DNA of 56,022 nucleotides, from positions 1 through 56,022 of IMG/VR virus record IMGVR_UViG_3300018005_000018, one strand, 5' to 3'. The notes beneath the pieces were generated by a model, which did not search any database, had not been told where the DNA came from, and was given only the letters and a program-made list of their open reading frames with translations. A program made the translations under genes and the position numbers. This DNA is from a virus (taxonomy: Duplodnaviria; Caudoviricetes). Positions 24,444 to 39,483 of this stretch are shown in pieces. Numbering within the stretch: position 1 is the first letter of the stretch; each line of letters starts with the position of its first letter.

Positions 24444-25655
24444 TCATTTACCTATAACGGATATATTCGGAAACATCACAATAAACTTACCAGAATACTG
24501 CCCTTTTAAAGAATCAATAATGTAGTCTTTGAAATTATGTGCGAGAATAAGTATATAATCGGGCTGAAAGGCTTTTAATGATTCCCGACTGATAACTTCA
24601 ATACCTGTTCCTGGCACGAACTTGCCCTGTTTGAACGGAGTGTCATCAATGATGAAGGGGATCATATCATCATTTATCCCACAGCTATTAAGAAACACAC
24701 ATCCTTTCGCTGCAGCACCAAAACAAACAATCGTCTTATTTATTGCCAAAAGATCATAAATGAATTTACGAAATGTCTCTATTTTCTCGTGTGTTCTCTT
24801 TCCCCATTTGACACAATATTCCTCGGTAATAGTTTTTTCCAGATTAAGGAATGACAATATTGTGCTATCAGGATATCTGTATGATGATTCTTTTACACTA
24901 AGCACACGTAATGTCCCTGCGTGCATATCGTGATATGATACATTAACAACCCTTAATCCTTCCTGTGCCAATAGATCAACAATATTTTTCAAGCAATAAT
25001 AATACACATGTTCATGATAAATCTGGTCATAGTTATCATTTGCAAGCGTTGTGAGGATATATGGAAATTCCAGACACCATACACCCTCATTTGATAAATT
25101 CCTCTCTACACCTCTCACAAATGAACGAATATCGACAGTATGCTGAAACACGTTTGTTGATGTTATTAGTTTTGCTTTATATGGTAATCTTGTTTGCGAA
25201 TCAAAATAAATATTCAGATATTCGATGCCATTCTCTTTGTTAATATCAATAAAACTTTTGCTACAATCCACGTTCACATAATGCAGATTACAGTTCTCTT
25301 TGCGGAACTCCATAAGGAGACTACCGTCATTGCCTCCTATGTCCACCACCAAATCTTTATCTTTGAAGTTCACATGACGGGATAAGTAGTCATACATTTT
25401 TGCACAATGATCAAGATAGGGTTTGTTAACTCCCGACTTATAGAGATAGTTTAGAAACATATCATCTTTATTGACAACATCAGTCAAACATATTAACCGG
25501 CTCTCATGGAAGAATTGTATTGCCAATGGGAATCTCTGACAAGCCAATGATTCTTTTTTTGTATCACAGAAATTATTCACCAATGGTACAGTCCCAAGAT
25601 TAAGAAATTCTACTCGTTTTATACTACCGGATATGGGACATGAATCAATCTTCAT
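24444..25655 (-). CDS. NDP-hexose C-methyltransferase (NovU/TcaB9-like)
   Basis: LGTVPLVN, VDIGGNDG, TNVFQH, YHEH, FGAAAKG, KQGKFVPGTGI motifs. Confidence 0.9.
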   Translation of the reverse strand: MKIDSCPISGSIKRVEFLNLGTVPLVNNFCDTKKESLACQRFPLAIQFFHESRLICLTDVVNKDDMFLNYLYKSGVNKPYLDHCAKMYDYLSRHVNFKDKDLVVDIGGNDGSLLMEFRKENCNLHYVNVDCSKSFIDINKENGIEYLNIYFDSQTRLPYKAKLITSTNVFQHTVDIRSFVRGVERNLSNEGVWCLEFPYILTTLANDNYDQIYHEHVYYYCLKNIVDLLAQEGLRVVNVSYHDMHAGTLRVLSVKESSYRYPDSTILSFLNLEKTITEEYCVKWGKRTHEKIETFRKFIYDLLAINKTIVCFGAAAKGCVFLNSCGINDDMIPFIIDDTPFKQGKFVPGTGIEVISRESLKAFQPDYILILAHNFKDYIIDSLKGQYSGKFIVMFPNISVIGK

Positions 25656-29535: not shown

Positions 29536-29620
29536 AAAAACCCCATGTACTCGACATGGGGTCGCACTACTATGAAAAACAAGAAAGCAGACCTGTTGGC
29601 AAACAGGCGATTCAAAGATA
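29536..29620 (-). ncRNA. Candidate ~75-nt small RNA: promoter, 5' hairpin, anti-start-codon segment, terminator
   Basis: TATCTTTG 29613-29620; CCTGTT/AACAGG hairpin; GTTTTTCATAGTAG; ACCCCATGT/ACATGGGGT + TTTT. Confidence 0.55.
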
Positions 29621-29647
29621 ATCTATTTTTGCTTCTTGTTTCCATTT

Positions 29648-30163
29648 TTATTCTTCAGGTAAGTTGTCTAAAAAAATTTGTCTTTCTTTTTCGTATTGGA
29701 TTTCTGATTCAGAAAGAGAAATTTCTTTTTCTTCTTCTTTTTCTTTATTTATTTCTTTATCTTCTTCTATTCTTATACTTCCTGCCGTCTGCTTGCCGTC
29801 TGCTTGTGCTTCTGCCTGTACGTCTGCTTGTGAAATTGGATTATAAATATCATATTTACAAAGTGTTAGTATTGTCGTTTTCCATGCCGTTGTGGTTGCC
29901 ACTTGTTGTTCACTTTTTAGTAAGTTAATGAATATCCGCACTTTATGAATTGACCAATTCCATCTCTTTGACAAAAATGAATAACTTACAGGATATTGAC
30001 CTCTTCCCCATTTTATTATTACTCCATCTATTAATTTTTTATTATCTATTGTAAATGATACTAACTGAATTAAATCTATCCATGCTTCTGCTCTACTATA
30101 TTCCCTATTCTCTTTCCAGAAGTTATGATCAAAGAGTTTTCTATTAATGCGAATGAAGGCCAT
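29648..30163 (-). CDS. Phage replisome-organiser-like N-terminal winged-helix protein
   Basis: FIRINRK...EAWIDLI...RGQY...LSKRWNWS...TLCKYDIY. Confidence 0.7.
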   Translation of the reverse strand: MAFIRINRKLFDHNFWKENREYSRAEAWIDLIQLVSFTIDNKKLIDGVIIKWGRGQYPVSYSFLSKRWNWSIHKVRIFINLLKSEQQVATTTAWKTTILTLCKYDIYNPISQADVQAEAQADGKQTAGSIRIEEDKEINKEKEEEKEISLSESEIQYEKERQIFLDNLPEE

Positions 30164-30194: not shown

Positions 30195-30377
30195 TTACTC
30201 TATTCCCAATCTTTTAAGTTTAGTCAGTTCTTCAACTGTGAAGAAGTTATCCTTTAATCTTTGAGCAAAAGTCTGCCGAGTAATGCCGAGCTCTGCAGCC
30301 ATCTCTATTTGAGTCTTGCTGTTTCGATTCATCCAGATAAGTACCTTCTCTGATGTTTTTATTATTCTGGTTTCCAT
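30195..30377 (-). CDS. Cro/XRE-family HTH regulator
   Basis: TQIEMAAELGITRQTFAQRL; TATATTTG box at 30438-30445. Confidence 0.8.
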   Translation of the reverse strand: METRIIKTSEKVLIWMNRNSKTQIEMAAELGITRQTFAQRLKDNFFTVEELTKLKRLGIE

Positions 30378-30585
30378 TCGTCAAACTTTACATTTGTTAT
30401 TTCATAGTTCAAAAAATATCCCATTACTGAGATAATGCAAATATAAACTAATTTTTAAATTTCCAAATAAAAATGATCCCCAGCATAGGAAAATTGTTAA
30501 TCAATATAAAATTCTACAAATAGTTGAAAACACTGATAAAAACCTAACCTGTAAATGAAAGAACGCACCGGGGATCAATTGTCAA

Positions 30586-30723
30586 TCAGTAAATATCAGT
30601 TGCCCTTTTTGTTTTTACCGTGGGCTTTCGTCTTCTCTTGTGATGATGGCTATGATGTTCATCATGCCTGATCACCAATGTAATTACGACAATCGTAATC
30701 GCTACAATTAAAAATATTTCCAT
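30586..30723 (-). CDS. 45-aa TM peptide with His-rich and basic tail
   Basis: MEIFLIVAITIVVITLVIRHDEHHSHHHKRRRKPTVKTKRATDIY, TAATG-coupled. Confidence 0.6.
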   Translation of the reverse strand: MEIFLIVAITIVVITLVIRHDEHHSHHHKRRRKPTVKTKRATDIY

Positions 30724-31049
30724 TACACGATGTCTGTAGCCGGAAGGGTTTCAACGATTGGAGGCCCCGTAACTACGTCAGCAGGTGTAATAAGATCAAG
30801 AGTAGCACCTTCAGTTGTTCCTTCACTGTTTGTTGCACTTACCTTGAAAAAATAAGTTGTGTCTGCATCCAAATCAGTGATTGGTGCTTGTGCGGGAATT
30901 GCATCATGTCCTGCAGGCACCACTGCCGGAAGATCCACCTCGATTGGATTTGCCAATAATGGGTCTGTCCCGTATAAGAATTTTACTGTTGTATTCAACC
31001 CATTAGGGTTTACGGATGCGTTTAATGTTGCTCCATGAATTGTTGCCAT
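30723..31049 (-). CDS. FN3-like single-domain protein
   Basis: ATLNASVNPNG...FLYGT...TTYFFKVSATNSEGT; TATCTTTG at 31077-31084 supports ATG 31049. Confidence 0.7.
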   Translation of the reverse strand: MATIHGATLNASVNPNGLNTTVKFLYGTDPLLANPIEVDLPAVVPAGHDAIPAQAPITDLDADTTYFFKVSATNSEGTTEGATLDLITPADVVTGPPIVETLPATDIV

Positions 31050-34803: not shown

Positions 34804-35040
34804 TTACAGATTAATAATGATACATTCCAATTCTGCCTCAAATATTGCCTGCTCTTCTGCATCTTCAGCGCATAGCGGGCACAAATTAACGTCTAAAGGA
34901 TGTATTATCCCTTCTTCAATTAGCATCTCCAATTCTTTCGAGATCGTGAACCAGGTTCCGCAATTTGCGCACTTGGCTTGCTGTCCTTTGAATAATTTAA
35001 TTAATTCGCTGGTCTTTAGTGGTTTTCGTGTGTTTTTCAT
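34804..35040 (-). CDS. Zn-finger hypothetical protein
   Basis: CANCG...CPLC; TAACTTTG at 35064-35071. Confidence 0.6.
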   Translation of the reverse strand: MKNTRKPLKTSELIKLFKGQQAKCANCGTWFTISKELEMLIEEGIIHPLDVNLCPLCAEDAEEQAIFEAELECIIINL

Positions 35041-35063
35041 ATCGTTTATATTAATTAACAGAT

Positions 35064-35177
35064 CAAAGTTAAAATTTAGTTTTCATATTAGCAAATCTTT
35101 TTACATATTTATTTTGCATTATTATATTATTATTTTTGCTTTTTGCTTGTTTATTATATATATAAGGTATAAATTTG
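35064..35177. promoter_or_regulatory. Divergent promoter pair in very AT-rich spacer
   Basis: TAACTTTG (minus, 35064-35071) and TAAATTTG (plus, 35170-35177). Confidence 0.65.
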
Positions 35178-35205
35178 TACTGTTAACCAATTAAAAACAC
35201 ACACA

Positions 35206-35496
35206 ATGAAGACAACAAAAGCAACAGTTAAGAGCTTCATTCGAAGGAATGAAGGTAACCTGTTTATTAACGTTAAATCATCCTTTGATGGTATGACAGA
35301 TTGCTGTGAGCCTTTGCATGATGGATTTGTAAAGGCAAATAAGACTGAAGAATTTTCAGAACGTACTCTTGGAATAGCCGGAGCCTGGTTTGTCGGTCAA
35401 AGTCGTGATTACTTCACGCCTTATAATGTAAATGGTTATAACGGTTATGAGGTGAGTAATAGCTGCGGTCATTTTATTATAGCAGTTAAAAATTAA
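35206..35496 (+). CDS. Hypothetical early-type phage protein
   Basis: KSSFDGMTDC...GAWFVGQSRDYF...VSNSCG. Confidence 0.7.
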   Translation: MKTTKATVKSFIRRNEGNLFINVKSSFDGMTDCCEPLHDGFVKANKTEEFSERTLGIAGAWFVGQSRDYFTPYNVNGYNGYEVSNSCGHFIIAVKN

Positions 35497-35519
35497 TTAA
35501 GCCTTTTAAAAAATACACA

Positions 35520-35975
35520 ATGGAAACTTACAAGAGCAAAATGCCGGAAATAAAACTAATCCTCAAAAAAGGAGAGGTCTTGAAATGCAAGATCAAAGAA
35601 AGCAAGGACGCTGCCGATTTATTTCGGCAGATATGGGATAAAGACAGTTTAGAATTATACGAAAGTTTTATTTGTATTTATCTTAATCGAGCAAACAACA
35701 CAATAGGATGGTTAAAAATAAGTCAAGGGGGACTATCGGGGACAGTCACAGATGTAAGGCTAATTTTAGCAACTGCCTTGGGCTGTGCTGCATCTGGTAT
35801 GATTATGGCACACAATCACCCTTCAGGCAATATTAATCCTTCTGATTCTGATTCTAAAATAACACAAAAGATTAAAGAAGGTGGTAATATTATGGACATT
35901 CAGGTTTTAGATCATATAATATTGTCAGGCGAAAATGAAGACTATTACAGTTTTGCGGATAATGGATTTATTTAA
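35520..35975 (+). CDS. radC: RadC-like JAB-domain protein
   Basis: E...LNRAN...GGLSGTVTD...AHNHPSGNINPSDSD...LDHII. Confidence 0.92.
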   Translation: METYKSKMPEIKLILKKGEVLKCKIKESKDAADLFRQIWDKDSLELYESFICIYLNRANNTIGWLKISQGGLSGTVTDVRLILATALGCAASGMIMAHNHPSGNINPSDSDSKITQKIKEGGNIMDIQVLDHIILSGENEDYYSFADNGFI

Positions 35976-36057
35976 TGTTTTTGCCCGTTGCAAGTCGGGA
36001 CAATACAGAGCACTCCGGCAAATAACCGGAGTAATGTAAACCAAAAACACACGCATT

Positions 36058-36159
36058 ATGAACTACATTTATTTAATTCCGGTTTTATTCGTGGCCTTGT
36101 GCCTCATTATGATTGTTCTTCCCCAAGTTAAACCCTTTTCGTCTGTTAAAAAACTTTAA
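36058..36159 (+). CDS. 33-aa hydrophobic peptide
   Basis: MNYIYLIPVLFVALCLIMIVLPQVKPFSSVKKL, preceded by an AAAAACACAC leader. Confidence 0.5.
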   Translation: MNYIYLIPVLFVALCLIMIVLPQVKPFSSVKKL

Positions 36160-36163
36160 AGTT

Positions 36164-36364
36164 ATGGCACGCAAAAAATGCACTCTGGAAAGTATTGGAA
36201 TTACCACGTTAAAACCTGGTCAATTCTTTTATTCACACAAAGCCGACAAAGATATTACGGCAATTTCTCATTATTATCGGGTGAGAGTAGGAACCGAAAG
36301 ACTAATTTTAATCAATCCGCAAACCTGCAAAGCTCAAAAAATTACCAAAGTGACAATTTTATGA
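36164..36364 (+). CDS. Hypothetical protein
   Basis: MARKKCTLES... Confidence 0.55.
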   Translation: MARKKCTLESIGITTLKPGQFFYSHKADKDITAISHYYRVRVGTERLILINPQTCKAQKITKVTIL

Positions 36365-36576
36365 TTGATATAATGACCGTTAAAAAACCACAAGCAATCG
36401 GGAAGAACTTTATAGTTAAGCGGTGCGCTAGGTGTCGCCAGTTAGTCCTGGATGATCCTGCGCACCCTGTTAATGGTCTGCTGCGTGAAGCCTGTAACCC
36501 TAAGACAGCCGGAGAATATTGGACCACGAAGCAATTACGAAGCACCAAAGCACAAAGGACCTTTAATTTTGGCTAA
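36361..36576 (+). CDS. Hypothetical Cys-containing protein
   Basis: ATGA-coupled start; CARC. Confidence 0.5.
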   Translation: MIDIMTVKKPQAIGKNFIVKRCARCRQLVLDDPAHPVNGLLREACNPKTAGEYWTTKQLRSTKAQRTFNFG

Positions 36577-36664
36577 ACGGGAGGCACTAAGAAACGGGAG
36601 ATGCTAATTTCCTTAACGGGAGAGAGACAAAATAATGCGATCAGTATATTGATCAAAACGGGAG
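36576..36664 (+). repeat. Four direct copies of AACGGGAG
   Basis: Copies start at 36576, 36593, 36615, 36657 in an intergenic region. Confidence 0.85.
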
Positions 36665-36710
36665 ACACTATAATATTTGAAAGTTCTTTAACCTAAAAAA
36701 GCAATAAAAA

Positions 36711-37334
36711 ATGAACACACAAAAACTTAAAAATTTAAATGCCTGCAGAGAAGCTGTTGAGTATGTAAAAACTCAAAAATCTACTACTCTTGCTTGGCAA
36801 AACTGCCCTCGCGGTGATTGGATGCTTTGGCTTGCATCAAAACTTGGTGTCAATAAGAGATTATTAATTCTTGCAAAAGGCAAATGTGCACAGACTGTGC
36901 TTCATCTTATGAAAGATCAACGAAGTAAGGACGCTGTAAAAGCCGCTATTGATTATGGAGAAGGTAATATTAATGATCAACAACTAGCTGCTTATGCTGC
37001 TGATGCTGCTGCTTATGATTATGCTGCTGATGCTGCTGCTTATGCTGCTGATGCTGCTGCTTATGCTGCTAATGCTGCTAATGCTGCTAATGCTGCTTAT
37101 GCTGCTGCTTATGCTGCTAATGCTGCTTATGCTGCTGATGCTGATGCTTATGCTGCTAATGCTGCTAATGCTGCTAATGCTGCTAATGCTGCTTATGCTG
37201 CTGCTTATGCTGCTAATGCTGCTGATGCTGCTGCTTATGATGCTGCTAGAAAGAACAATCAACTACTAACTGCCAATATTTGCAGAGAGATTCTTACAAA
37301 AGAAGTTTTAACAAAATACAGAAAATTGAAATGA
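36711..37334 (+). CDS. Phage protein with RGDWMLW domain and Ala-rich (AAYAA/AANAA) repeat
   Basis: NACREA...CPRGDWMLWL N-domain; microsatellite-encoded Ala tract. Confidence 0.8.
   Translation: MNTQKLKNLNACREAVEYVKTQKSTTLAWQNCPRGDWMLWLASKLGVNKRLLILAKGKCAQTVLHLMKDQRSKDAVKAAIDYGEGNINDQQLAAYAADAAAYDYAADAAAYAADAAAYAANAANAANAAYAAAYAANAAYAADADAYAANAANAANAANAAYAAAYAANAADAAAYDAARKNNQLLTANICREILTKEVLTKYRKLK
36987..37247 (+). repeat. Coding trinucleotide microsatellite (GCT with GAT/TAT/AAT)
   Basis: ~87 consecutive codons drawn only from GCT, GAT, TAT, AAT. Confidence 0.95.
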
Positions 37335-37474
37335 GCAGCAAAAAACGAGATAATGCTATCTCTAAAATCCTTAAGGATTACGAAAAACGCAAAAGTAAAA
37401 AGCGGGTAAAACTCGGTATATTATTGAAAGAGAATGCTTCTATAAGACGCAAGTGGTACTATTTCTGGAAATAA
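37331..37474 (+). CDS. Small basic hypothetical protein
   Basis: MSSKKRDNA..., ATGA-coupled. Confidence 0.45.
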   Translation: MSSKKRDNAISKILKDYEKRKSKKRVKLGILLKENASIRRKWYYFWK

Positions 37475-37476
37475 GT

Positions 37477-37530
37477 TATCTTTGCGTTAAGAAGGAGCTC
37501 CGGTTGTGTGTGTTCCGTCTCCTTCTTTTT
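37477..37530 (+). ncRNA. Candidate ~40-nt hairpin RNA or attenuator with TTGTGTGTGTT loop
   Basis: TATCTTTG 37477-37484; AAGAAGGAG/CTCCTTCTT and CGG/CCG stems; T-run. Confidence 0.55.
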
Positions 37531-37559
37531 AAAAACACACTTAACCAAATCTAAGCAAT

Positions 37560-38108
37560 ATGAAAAACTTACTTTTGATTATCCTTCTCTGCGGTGCTTC
37601 CCTTGCTTCCGGCAATTCTGACTATCATACATTGTACATTATTCAAGTTCATGGTATAATAAAACCAATTGATAAAGTGGATGTTCAGTTTAAACTATTT
37701 GCGAGCCATTTAAGCCTCATTGAGTCCTCAAATGATTGGAAGGTCGTCAATAGCCTTGGAATGATAGGAAAATACCAGTTTAGCCCTGCTACGCTTGAAA
37801 TTCTCGGATACCACAACATAACTCCCGAAAGATTTAAAGCCGATCCGTCTATTTTTTCGGAAGCAATGCAAGAACAGGCTTTGCAGGATCTCATAAAAAA
37901 TAATCAGAACTCACTTAAAAAATTTGCTTCCTATATTGGTCAGGTGATCAATGGAACACTTATCACAAAAGCCGGGCTTCTCGGAGCTGCTCACTTAGCT
38001 GGTGTCGGGGGTGTTCAGAAGTTTCTCACAAGTGCTCACAATGCCACAGACTGCAATGGTGCATCTGTACAACGATATTTAACAGAATTTCAAAATTTTA
38101 ACGTATGA
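37560..38108 (+). CDS. Lysozyme/transglycosylase-like protein with N-terminal hydrophobic signal
   Basis: IESS (catalytic Glu) ...GKYQF...AAHLAGVGGV; MKNLLLIILLCGASLA. Confidence 0.75.
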   Translation: MKNLLLIILLCGASLASGNSDYHTLYIIQVHGIIKPIDKVDVQFKLFASHLSLIESSNDWKVVNSLGMIGKYQFSPATLEILGYHNITPERFKADPSIFSEAMQEQALQDLIKNNQNSLKKFASYIGQVINGTLITKAGLLGAAHLAGVGGVQKFLTSAHNATDCNGASVQRYLTEFQNFNV

Positions 38109-38251
38109 AGACAAAACAGAAAGAGTTTAAAGACGGTCTTGGTCACGAATTTGCCGAAGCGCCTCATGTCTTTGGCTGCCTCATTGTCGGGGTTATCCTG
38201 ATGATTGCTGTATATGAATTATTTCGTTATCTTATTCATTTAAAACCATGA
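38105..38251 (+). CDS. 48-aa single-TM protein
   Basis: ...VFGCLIVGVILMIAVYELF...; ATGA-coupled. Confidence 0.6.
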   Translation: MKTKQKEFKDGLGHEFAEAPHVFGCLIVGVILMIAVYELFRYLIHLKP

Positions 38252-38412
38252 AAAAATTTACAACATTAATCTTTTTGGTTGTCTGCTTTTTCTTTCTCAT
38301 GCTGGCAGTAGGTGGCGATAAATCCGTTGCAGCAAGGCTTGTATTTCTACTTTTATCTTTTGGTGCTGTATTTTCTGCGCTTTACATTCACTTCGAAATG
38401 GAGAAAAAATGA
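38248..38412 (+). CDS. 54-aa two-TM protein
   Basis: MKKFTTLIFLVVCFFFLMLAVGG...LVFLLLSFGAVFSALYI; ATGA-coupled on both sides. Confidence 0.6.
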   Translation: MKKFTTLIFLVVCFFFLMLAVGGDKSVAARLVFLLLSFGAVFSALYIHFEMEKK

Positions 38413-38675
38413 GAACATACACACCAAAACAGAAGAAACCCGTTAAGCTCGCTATACAGACAAAGAAGGTTCGTATTGATTACAAAACGGAGATTGAAGT
38501 ATCTGTAGCCATTTCAGATGAAGATGCCAGAAAACACTTCTGGTTAAGAAACAAGAGCTATCCGCATCCAAAGCCTATTATACCAACTATTCCAGAAGCA
38601 GATATAGCAGAAGGAGTGTCTCAGGAAGAACTTGTAGGGATTATTGACGATGAAAATTTACCGGAAATAGAATAA
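38409..38675 (+). CDS. Hypothetical protein
   Basis: 88-aa ORF. Confidence 0.6.
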   Translation: MRTYTPKQKKPVKLAIQTKKVRIDYKTEIEVSVAISDEDARKHFWLRNKSYPHPKPIIPTIPEADIAEGVSQEELVGIIDDENLPEIE

Positions 38676-38701
38676 GAGGGATGAGATATGGAGTAGTCCC
38701 C

Positions 38702-38728
38702 GCCTCACAGAAATGTGGGGCTTTTTTT
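38702..38728 (+). terminator. Rho-independent terminator ending plus-strand block
   Basis: GCCTCACA-gaaa-TGTGGGGC + T7. Confidence 0.85.
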
Positions 38729-38835
38729 ATTGATTCTTGGATTCTCTATCATATCAACTGAATAACAGACAATTAGTTTTAAAAAACACCCAAAAACAGG
38801 TCAAAAATAGCATTCTTGGATTCCGGTGTAAATAT

Positions 38836-39483
38836 CTACTTCTTTAAACTATCAAAAAACACTTTATTGAGATGCCCAACAACTTCCATAACTTCCTGCA
38901 GCCCATATTTAACACCAATAATTAATCCTTTTGTTGTCGGGAAATATAACTTGTATTCTTTTCGCAACTCCTCTGCCAAGTCTTTTAATTTCTGCCAATT
39001 TGCGGTGTTTTTGCCTTCGGACTGCTCCTCAACCTCTAATGCGTAAGTTATTCGCTGTTCTTCTGTACCATTGTCCCATAGATTGTGTTCATCAAGTGTT
39101 CCGAGAACAATATTTCTGGCATAATACTTAAAATTTGGGTATTTATTCTGTCCTTTTGGTAACACGTGCATAAAACAACTTATCCATAGGGGGGTATTTA
39201 AGTAGTCCCTGAGCCACACACCTGTGATAAATGACTTTTTATCGCTATACTGCCATATTAAGCGAAATAATGCCATTTCTGTGAACTGAGAAGGTTTTAT
39301 TGGCTGTACACTATTTGGTGTTGTTTCAAAATTTCTCACAGTTGTTATGTTTAATTTAAGTTTATTGCGTACATTCTTTCCATCTGTCCGTTTCCATTGA
39401 TGCCTTTCACAATAACCTAAACCAGTATTTTTGTCGGTACCCCAAACTCCAAAATTGCAATTTTCAACAGAACAGGTTCTCAT
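38836..39483 (-). CDS. NinG/HNH-like nuclease-fold protein
   Basis: N-terminal C-x4-C...C-x2-H; SFITG...CFMHVLPKG...YP...NIVL...EH...WD. Confidence 0.55.
   Translation of the reverse strand: MRTCSVENCNFGVWGTDKNTGLGYCERHQWKRTDGKNVRNKLKLNITTVRNFETTPNSVQPIKPSQFTEMALFRLIWQYSDKKSFITGVWLRDYLNTPLWISCFMHVLPKGQNKYPNFKYYARNIVLGTLDEHNLWDNGTEEQRITYALEVEEQSEGKNTANWQKLKDLAEELRKEYKLYFPTTKGLIIGVKYGLQEVMEVVGHLNKVFFDSLKK

Follow-up and report, generated by a model that had tools for sequence, protein, structure and literature searches.

A terminator hairpin with a conserved GU-repeat loop at the entry of a probable lysis cassette in an uncultivated phage and its relatives

The subject of this analysis is a hairpin at positions 37489-37527 (plus strand) of the virus record IMGVR_UViG_3300018005_000018 (Caudoviricetes) in IMG/VR. 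The complete record of 56,022 bp, with a completeness estimate of 76%, was analysed, and this whole stretch is called the window below. The hairpin is a real and selected RNA structure, and the sequence of its loop, a run of GU repeats, is under constraint. Judged from its sequence and position, it is an intrinsic terminator which closes a rightward accessory operon. The selected structure is concluded from the covariation of the stem, the near-invariant loop, and the uniqueness of this loop among the terminator candidates. The hairpin is presumably transcribed, and transcription presumably ends there.

The outer stem of the hairpin consists of AAGAAGGAG (37489-37497) paired with CUCCUUCUU (37519-37527), and the inner stem consists of CGG (37501-37503) paired with CCG (37515-37517); the two are joined through an asymmetric internal loop. 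The terminal loop is TTGTGTGTGTT (37504-37514, plus strand; UUGUGUGUGUU as RNA), a conserved GU repeat of 11 nt and a putative seed. The U-rich tract UUCUUUUU (37523-37530, plus strand) overlaps the outer stem, and the T-run ends at 37530. The predicted fold has an energy of -14.6 kcal/mol and a z-score of -4.7, and none of 200 shuffled sequences was as stable. A terminator scan limited to loops of 3-8 nt missed this hairpin. The covariance models of Rfam gave no match over 37470-37560 at E-values up to 10. A sequence-only reading of the same DNA had described the hairpin, its loop, the T-run, the upstream box TATCTTTG and a downstream CA box, and all of these are located where it had placed them.

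Related loci were collected using an alignment of 20 proteins homologous to the lysozyme-like protein encoded just downstream of the hairpin (called the muramidase below); this query gave 174 loci, whereas a single-protein query gave none. A scan for hairpins with GT-repeat loops was run over the window, the 174 fetched loci, and one further locus that is a copy from the window. A GC-rich stem with such a loop and a U-tract occurred nowhere except immediately ahead of the muramidase gene. It was seen in the window, L002, G001/G003, L072, and G002/L004. Their muramidases share 79% (L002), 45% (G001/G003), 44% (G002/L004), and 41% (L072) identity with that of the window. The record of the sixth lineage, G009, was reached independently via a leader motif, and its hairpin was found by a covariance model made from two hairpins. 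The seventh lineage, G013/G014, was found by a loop-plus-U-tract pattern; L222 and L223 also matched this pattern, and were rejected as chance matches. The weak model hits in L191, L193, L194, L195, L176, L182, L185, and G011 were likewise chance matches to ordinary hairpins without a GU loop. According to tblastn with 73 open reading frames (ORFs) of the window, the window, G001, G009, and G002 belong to a single clade, in which the structural proteins share 44-81% identity; G010 is a remote member, and G004, G006, and G007 share few genes with the window.

The terminator is present at the same junction, directly before the lysis gene, in seven related-phage lineages. The fold energies range from -14.6 to -23.1 kcal/mol across six lineages, and the seventh (G013) has -20.2 kcal/mol. 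A U-tract of at least 6 nt follows the stem directly on its 3' side in 7/7 lineages. The stem sequences differ yet all of them pair, for example GGGACUCGG, GGGUGCCGG, GGGUGCCAG, GAGCUCCGG, GCCGGG, and ACCGGGCGGG. The hairpins were misaligned by MAFFT, and a covariance model was used instead. In the resulting alignment of the seven lineages, which was fitted to the structure and has two rows slightly out of register, 93% of the cells are paired, and both sides have changed at seven of the nine pairs. The observed covariation was reached by 0/500 shuffles, and its score was 0.63, compared with at most 0.29 when the partner was slid. These results show a conserved, structured element with a selected GU loop, and support the sequence-only reading to this extent.

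The loop has the form U(2-4)(GU)3-4U(0-3) in all seven lineages, with one CA insert in G002. Its sequences are UUGUGUGUGUU, UUUUGUGUGUGU, UUUGUGUGUU (four lineages), and UUUCAGUGUGUGUUU, and its length is 10-15 nt. Between the window and L002, the upstream DNA is unalignable and the stems are different; the only conserved islands are TTATCTTTG, the loop, the U-tract, and the muramidase leader. A crude finder, which did not pick up the bulged hairpins in the window and in G002, gave 17-27 terminator candidates per genome (window, G001, G002, G009, and G010), and no other candidate has a GU-run loop. The presence of ACACACAC in 3/3 GU-loop records and in 0/5 GU-less records was given no weight as a profile test, because the GU-less G004, G006, and G007 are unrelated phages sharing few genes, and G005 and G008 lay outside the comparison. 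A second hairpin with a GU loop was observed in G001 (L176:5133-5161; G001 25132-25160), where UUGCGCCUGGG and CCUGGGCGCAA enclose GUGUGUU; it has a fold energy of -19.8 kcal/mol and no U-tract. It is located upstream of a 66-aa gene (‘MARKKCTL’), whose window homologue lies at 36164-36364 (87% identity).

The GU loop is complementary to a CA-rich initiation region of the same module. The exact reverse complement of the loop, the CA repeat AACACACACAA, has a single other occurrence in the window, at 35196-35206 on the plus strand, in the initiation region of the ORF at 35206-35496; it ends on the A of the ATG, as the sequence-only reading had pointed out. Exact copies of this 11-mer are expected 0.06 times per window on both strands, and two copies were found in 0/100 shuffles. 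When G-U pairs are allowed, no site in the window pairs better with the loop than the leader at 35185-35208 (-14.8 kcal/mol), and several other sites have -14.0 to -14.6 kcal/mol. Cognate duplexes between loop and leader comprise 8-11 contiguous pairs with -10 to -15 kcal/mol in each lineage with enough context. In the window, L002, G001, G002, and G009, one strand carries both the leader and the hairpin, at a distance of 1.9-5.1 kb. The target had been called an early gene; a plus-strand gene is indeed present at that place, whereas the word ‘early’ derives from its position only.

The CA leader is conserved as well. The promoter and leader of the window (TAAATTTGTACTGTTAACCAATTAAAAACACACACAATG), with the -7 box TAAATTTG of the operon promoter at 35170-35177 (plus strand), form a 38-nt block which is almost identical in G001 and has few changes in L002. 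The first genes behind this shared block are unrelated in the window and G001. The equivalent leaders of L002, G001, G002, and G009 contain a CA run of 6-8 nt; in G002, G009, and G013, TATCTTTG promoters are followed by leaders with ACACAC(AC). In the window, the ORF at 35206 alone has a long CA run in its leader, and shorter runs occur at or near four further starts of the plus-strand block and one divergent start. The idea of several early genes with CA leaders therefore holds for this ORF, whereas its plural was overstated. The shorter plus-strand runs include a CA box at 36047-36052 ahead of a small ORF (36058-36159), a CA run at 36715-36721 in codons 2-4 of the gene at 36711-37334 (MNTQ..., with the same ATGAACACACAA start in G013/G014), and a CA box at 38419-38424 in codons 4-6 of the gene at 38409-38675.

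When the gene starts were picked from the ORF list, 6/23 ACACAC sites of the window were within -30 to +20 of a start on the same strand, compared with 3.4% expected (p ~1e-4); all six are located within the 35.0-38.5 kb module. The module also holds 6/12 ACACACA sites in the window, 8/12 in G001, 8/9 in G002, and 6/7 in G013, and CA/GT 7-mers cluster there on both strands. In the sense direction, the hairpin always reads GU and the starts always read CA. Small paralogs of the MKHTxGxW type were observed in the early module in several copies per genome (G001 26146 and 26882 on the plus strand and two on the minus strand; G009; G002 8256 on the minus strand), all with a CA run in codons 2-4. 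These genes use CAC-ACA in 5/5 cases, compared with a genome-wide 27% CAC and 42% ACA; this codon use is only a hint, because paralogs do not count as independent cases.

Nine viral loci contain the leader motif AACCAATWAAAAACACAC, and in five of them (L191 and L193-L196) it is combined with a promoter and an ATG. In L191, L193, L194, L195, and L196, the form AACCAAT(T/A)AAAAACACAC was observed 2-4 nt before the ATG and 10-25 nt after a TAnnTTTG-like box. This motif looks like a shared promoter-leader cassette of Bacteroidota phages.

The favoured explanation, held tentatively and at slightly under an even chance, is that the GU loop pairs with CA-rich initiation regions of the same module in the manner of the small RNA GcvB, damping their translation. 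The hairpin would terminate the accessory operon and insulate the promoter-less lysis cassette. Its single-stranded loop, UU(GU)4U, would pair with CA/ACA-rich initiation regions, which might lower translation or alter stability, and the first target would be the leader of the operon itself, AACACACACAAUG. As part of the operon mRNA, at its 3' end, the loop could reach a leader on the same molecule (5'-3' pairing), or it could persist as a stable 3' fragment that acts in trans; an RNA of ~42 nt started at TATCTTTG might be a further carrier in the window and L002. Both the pairing and its effect are deduced here from the sequences. A broader ‘anti-enhancer’ circuit in this Bacteroidota phage clade is conceivable but doubtful; the terminator loop of the module would then silence CA/ACA enhancers by kissing-type pairing in cis or in trans. 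In such a circuit, the CA/ACA repeats would enhance the translation of accessory genes in hosts without Shine-Dalgarno pairing, and the hairpin would also gate the read-through into the lysis cassette, so that early-gene shut-off would be tied to the timing of lysis.

A number of observations weigh against the pairing. With one mismatch allowed, three sites were found versus 1.74 expected, which is not unusual; with G-U pairs allowed, many non-start sites are nearly as good. The top 14 targets in G001 and G002 include several module starts mixed with non-start sites, and the operon leader of G001 is outside its top 14. Non-cognate pairs of loop and leader score like the cognate ones, which indicates co-conservation and no covariation; the covariation of loop and leader, which the sequence-only reading had proposed as its own test, was thus not found. 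An A-run matching the conserved 5' U-run of the loop follows the CA repeat only in the window. The co-occurrence of loop and CA leader counts as one evolutionary observation and not seven, because all phages with the GU loop belong to one clade. The long CA leader of G013 is on a divergent, leftward unit, and therefore 5'-3' pairing within one mRNA cannot be the sole mode. There is no promoter box before the hairpin in G001, G002, G009, and G013, where the hairpin just follows the upstream gene. Among the four AACCAATWAAAAACACAC records searched as a whole, only G009 has the GU-loop terminator, which indicates that CA leaders are more widespread than the loop; no such terminator was found in the records of G010 (100% complete), G011, or G012, despite their CA leaders. 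Moreover, an 11-nt loop cannot form 11 pairs while its stem is closed, owing to RNA stereochemistry, and CA and GU repeats are low-complexity sequences which slippage can produce.

Some of these points would suit a plain terminator. The GU loop would then be an inherited low-complexity sequence, the CA-rich and G-poor leaders would be ordinary unstructured ribosome-entry sites of Bacteroidota phages, which have no Shine-Dalgarno sequences, and the complementarity would be a by-product. This explanation agrees with the restriction of the carriers to one clade, the existence of CA leaders without the loop, the missing loop-leader covariation, the unremarkable 11-mer match once one mismatch is allowed, and the A-rich leaders of the window, which have no Shine-Dalgarno sequences. 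However, loops usually drift faster than stems, whereas in this hairpin seven of the nine stem pairs have changed and the loop has stayed. The loop was also kept across muramidases that are 41-79% identical or replaced, and across unalignable flanks; and loops of 10-15 nt are larger than usual for terminators. A plain terminator is considered unlikely.

A conserved loop on a variable stem is also the signature of a hairpin that is read by a protein. In this case, a protein would recognize the GU loop on a regulated terminator and set the read-through into the lysis cassette, comparable to N/boxB of phage lambda or to a host single-stranded-RNA binder of the RNA-recognition motif (RRM) type; the CA complementarity would be incidental. 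In no lineage was a TAnnTTTG box seen in the interval from the hairpin to the ATG of the muramidase; the lysis genes therefore appear to be dependent on read-through, which would suit such a control. The 5' U-run of the loop is conserved though it has no partner in most leaders, and this also fits a protein reader. On the other hand, no candidate protein was found, the genes beside the hairpin differ between window/L002 and G001/G002/G009, and the CA runs at the module starts are left unexplained. The RRM protein RbpB of Bacteroides binds single-stranded RNA with some sequence preference, according to the cited part of its description (bioRxiv 10.1101/2021.04.27.441718). RbpB itself was rejected as the reader of the loop; the motifs published in that part, GUAGGAUA and UCCUGUGC, are not GU repeats (bioRxiv 10.1101/2021.04.27.441718). 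Reading by a protein is rated as rather unlikely.

The loop could also pair in cis. The CA box AAAAACACAC at 37531-37540 (plus strand) is in the muramidase leader, ahead of the ATG at 37560, and the loop was proposed to pair with AACACAC, 20 nt downstream (37534-37540), as an attenuator or pseudoknot controlling the termination or translation of the muramidase. The AAAAACACAC box with its AACACAC is present in the window and kept in L002, and it is shortened to AAACAC, after the U-tract, in G001, L072, G009, and G013. However, G002 keeps the loop and has no box, and for this reason the pseudoknot was rejected as a conserved function. At most five pairs would form in loops of the G001 type, and an estimated ~7 nt of linker is little to span a 13-bp stem in a pseudoknot of the H type. 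The cis attenuator is regarded as very unlikely.

The CA and GT repeats might instead act as DNA, as binding sites of a regulator or as hotspots of recombination or slippage, and the hairpin would then be irrelevant. The clustering of CA/GT 7-mers in the module on both strands is consistent with this, and in the window and L002 both sites are ~20 nt downstream of a -7 box. Nevertheless, the strand orientation strictly follows the direction of transcription, a site in duplex DNA would not need a covarying inverted repeat with a U-tract, and no promoter precedes the hairpin in G001, G002, G009, and G013. A DNA-level element is hard to credit.

The box TATCTTTG at 37477-37484 (plus strand), 4 nt before the hairpin, matches the Bacteroidota -7 box TAnnTTTG. 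Such a box is present 4-8 nt before the hairpin in the window and L002, and TTATCTTTG is kept at 9/9 positions in L002. The motif is not enriched in the whole window (80 found versus 66 expected) and is common by chance. An RNA of ~40 nt, as proposed by the sequence-only reading, would find its promoter box in the window and L002, but none was found in G001, G002, G009, and G013. A separate small RNA gene of this size is therefore not the general form, because the box before the hairpin is restricted to the window and L002. Taken together, the earlier interpretation is partly supported. The sequence-only reading had also named two other elements of the window. The 29.6-kb element (29540-29660) has a terminator-like hairpin at 29591-29608, minus strand, next to TATCTTTG and TATTTTTG boxes; in the 30.5-kb element (30360-30740), 30380-30720 is an AT-rich intergenic region of 340 bp.

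The accessory operon starts behind the CA leader with a 96-aa ORF of no assigned family (35206-35496, plus strand). This ORF has no match in Pfam or PHROG and no homologue in G001-G003, and it is unlike the first genes of G001 and G002. Next in the operon are a RadC-like JAB-domain protein (35520-35975, plus strand; Pfam RadC 2.9e-36, PHROG 5e-30) and a full-length twister ribozyme of type P3 (35977-36048, plus strand; Rfam RF03154, 51 bits versus a gathering score of 39.9). Twisters of RF03154 were also found in L002 (982-1052, 47.2 bits) and in G001 (L176:6067-6137, 59.6 bits), and in these three lineages they are located between cistrons of the same rightward operon. Cleavage by the twister would separate the CA leader from the GU-loop terminator on the operon mRNA. 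Small ORFs come after the twister, and behind them the gene at 36711-37334 (plus strand), which starts with MNTQ, encodes a 207-aa protein with an Ala/Asn/Tyr repeat. The repeat (36972-37283) consists of GCT/GCA-rich DNA; in metagenome runs, unrelated contigs raise its depth to very high values, and it gave a spurious, weak match to isrG (30 bits versus a gathering score of 100). A very basic ORF of 47 aa (MSSKKRDNAISKILKDYEKRKSKKRVKLG..., 37331-37474, plus strand) immediately precedes the hairpin; it is absent from L002 and has no family match, and it may encode an RNA-binding peptide or may not be a real gene. No strong plus-strand terminator was seen between the leader and the hairpin in the window.

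Downstream of the hairpin, a secreted protein of 182 aa with a signal-peptide-like N-terminus is encoded at 37560-38108 (plus strand), and it is similar to lytic transglycosylases. It matches the tail lysozyme of PHROG (6.9e-8), and the Pfam Transglycosylase-like family with 21.7 bits, which does not reach the cutoff of 27. The AlphaFold2 model has a predicted local distance difference test (pLDDT) score of 83. In the Foldseek comparison with the PDB, the listed matches are lytic transglycosylases and phage lysins, except for two resuscitation-promoting factor domains; the E-values are weak (0.016-0.4), and the best matches have probabilities up to 0.99. The residues E55-S56 are invariant in 20 homologues. 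A sequence search of the PDB with the muramidase profile gave nothing relevant. The lysozyme-like nature assigned to this gene earlier is thus consistent with PHROG, Pfam, and the lytic transglycosylase fold of the model. Two small hydrophobic ORFs of 48 and 54 aa follow (38105-38412, plus strand), with one and two hydrophobic helices and no family match; their size, hydrophobicity, and position suggest that they are holin-like. The muramidase and these holin-like ORFs probably constitute a lysis cassette. A conserved ORF of 88 aa (38409-38675, plus strand) comes next, and an ordinary intrinsic terminator without a GU loop (38702-38721, plus strand) ends the plus-strand module. In G009, the muramidase is replaced by a different SLT-domain protein (L197:1036-1458, minus strand; Pfam 33.7 bits), which has no tblastn match to the window muramidase; the hairpin is retained, and the upstream 142-aa gene is kept.

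The module of small plus-strand genes (33.2-38.7 kb) is located between two minus-strand blocks. The block at 1-21 kb contains tail, virion, portal, and large-terminase genes, and the block at 38.8-56 kb contains recombination and replication genes, namely RecT-, RusA-, and RecE-like proteins and a primase/helicase. The phage is uncultivated, and its host is probably a member of the Bacteroidales, because the muramidase homologue with 79% identity comes from a Bacteroidales metagenome-assembled genome, the leaders are A-rich without Shine-Dalgarno sequences, and TAnnTTTG boxes are present. The A-rich leaders occur throughout the window, and the boxes are located ahead of the transcription units of the module. 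According to the cited part of PMC7366714, the mRNAs of Bacteroidota use A-rich leaders instead of Shine-Dalgarno sequences, and their -7 promoter consensus is TAnnTTTG. A blastn search of window positions 35000-39000 against the phage GenBank collection gave no match.

Intrinsic terminators, GU seeds that target CA enhancers, and antisense RNAs of phages are all known kinds of element; what neither Rfam nor the literature found describes is their combination, a conserved seed-like loop within a terminator ahead of a lysis cassette in Bacteroidota phages. A literature search for the motif found no description of it, and a search for transcription maps of Bacteroidota phages gave nothing relevant; the supplementary motif tables of the Bacteroides papers were outside this search. 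One of the closest known systems is GcvB, a chromosomal small RNA of enterobacteria of ~200 nt, whose seed is in a linear region and which is Hfq-dependent. In the cited part of PMC3879156, GcvB is described as silencing ACA/CA-rich translation enhancers, and these C/A-rich target elements themselves favour translation. The likeness, as far as this part of the source goes, is a single-stranded G/U-rich stretch matched to C/A-rich elements at the ribosome-binding regions of several mRNAs. Unlike GcvB, the GU stretch here is the terminator loop of a phage operon in a phylum reported to lack Hfq (PMC13370968), and its function is putative; there is no homology in sequence or structure, and no Rfam match.

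The hairpin resembles intrinsic terminators in its GC-rich stem of 9-13 bp, the U-tract following at once, and the position at the end of a gene block, whereas ordinary terminators have short loops with no sequence constraint and the loop here has 10-15 nt and a conserved sequence. Regulation via the terminator loop has been described for SdsR, RseX, and ArrS of E. coli, where, as is proposed here, the loop of an intrinsic terminator carries the specificity (cited part of PMC11979758). In the same part of that source, however, these RNAs act ‘likely without base-pairing’ on a structured 5' untranslated region (UTR), with Hfq and RNase E, whereas plain complementarity to initiation regions is proposed for the present loop (PMC11979758). 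Pairing between the 5' and 3' UTRs of one mRNA is reported for icaR of S. aureus and hbs of B. subtilis, in the cited parts of PMC3868564 and PMC5737220. As described there, a 3'-terminal element is complementary to the ribosome-binding region, and here the two are on the same strand, 1.9-5.1 kb apart, in five lineages. In contrast to icaR and hbs as these sources present them, the operon here is polycistronic and has a self-cleaving twister between the partners, and the long leader of G013 is on the other strand.

Among phage RNAs, a small structured RNA with loops directed against ribosome-binding or leader sites of the same operon, as is predicted here, has counterparts in P1 c4 and P4 CI RNA. 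These immunity RNAs come from the 5' part of the transcript they regulate and serve lysogenic immunity; they share no sequence with the hairpin. In the window and L002, the order of promoter box, terminator, and lysis genes, with the box immediately ahead of the terminator, resembles lambda PR'-tR' (6S RNA), which is under Q antitermination; in four other lineages, unlike in lambda PR'-tR', no promoter precedes the hairpin. The conserved loop on a variable stem is also reminiscent of the boxB element of the N system, although boxB is not itself a terminator. No antiterminator of the N or Q type was named in the PHROG and Pfam scans of 59 window ORFs, which did not include a dedicated search.

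The phylum is reported to lack Hfq (cited part of PMC13370968), papers on Bacteroides point to a lack of both Hfq and CsrA, and initiation in these hosts is not led by Shine-Dalgarno sequences. If the ‘anti-enhancer’ circuit is real, it would be the earliest known case in a phage of a terminator-loop seed regulon, and would match GcvB by convergence in a phylum without Hfq. A conserved terminator loop that pairs with CA-rich initiation regions would mean that the silencing of CA enhancers by GU seeds arose more than once. It would offer a simple, testable case of RNA-based timing in Bacteroidota phages, whose post-transcriptional control, like that of their hosts, is poorly known, and the 42-nt hairpin together with the 10-nt leader box would make a compact and portable regulatory part. 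Even if the pairing is wrong, the hairpin still counts as a new and conserved RNA motif, which is positioned where the lysis cassette begins and has a loop under selection.

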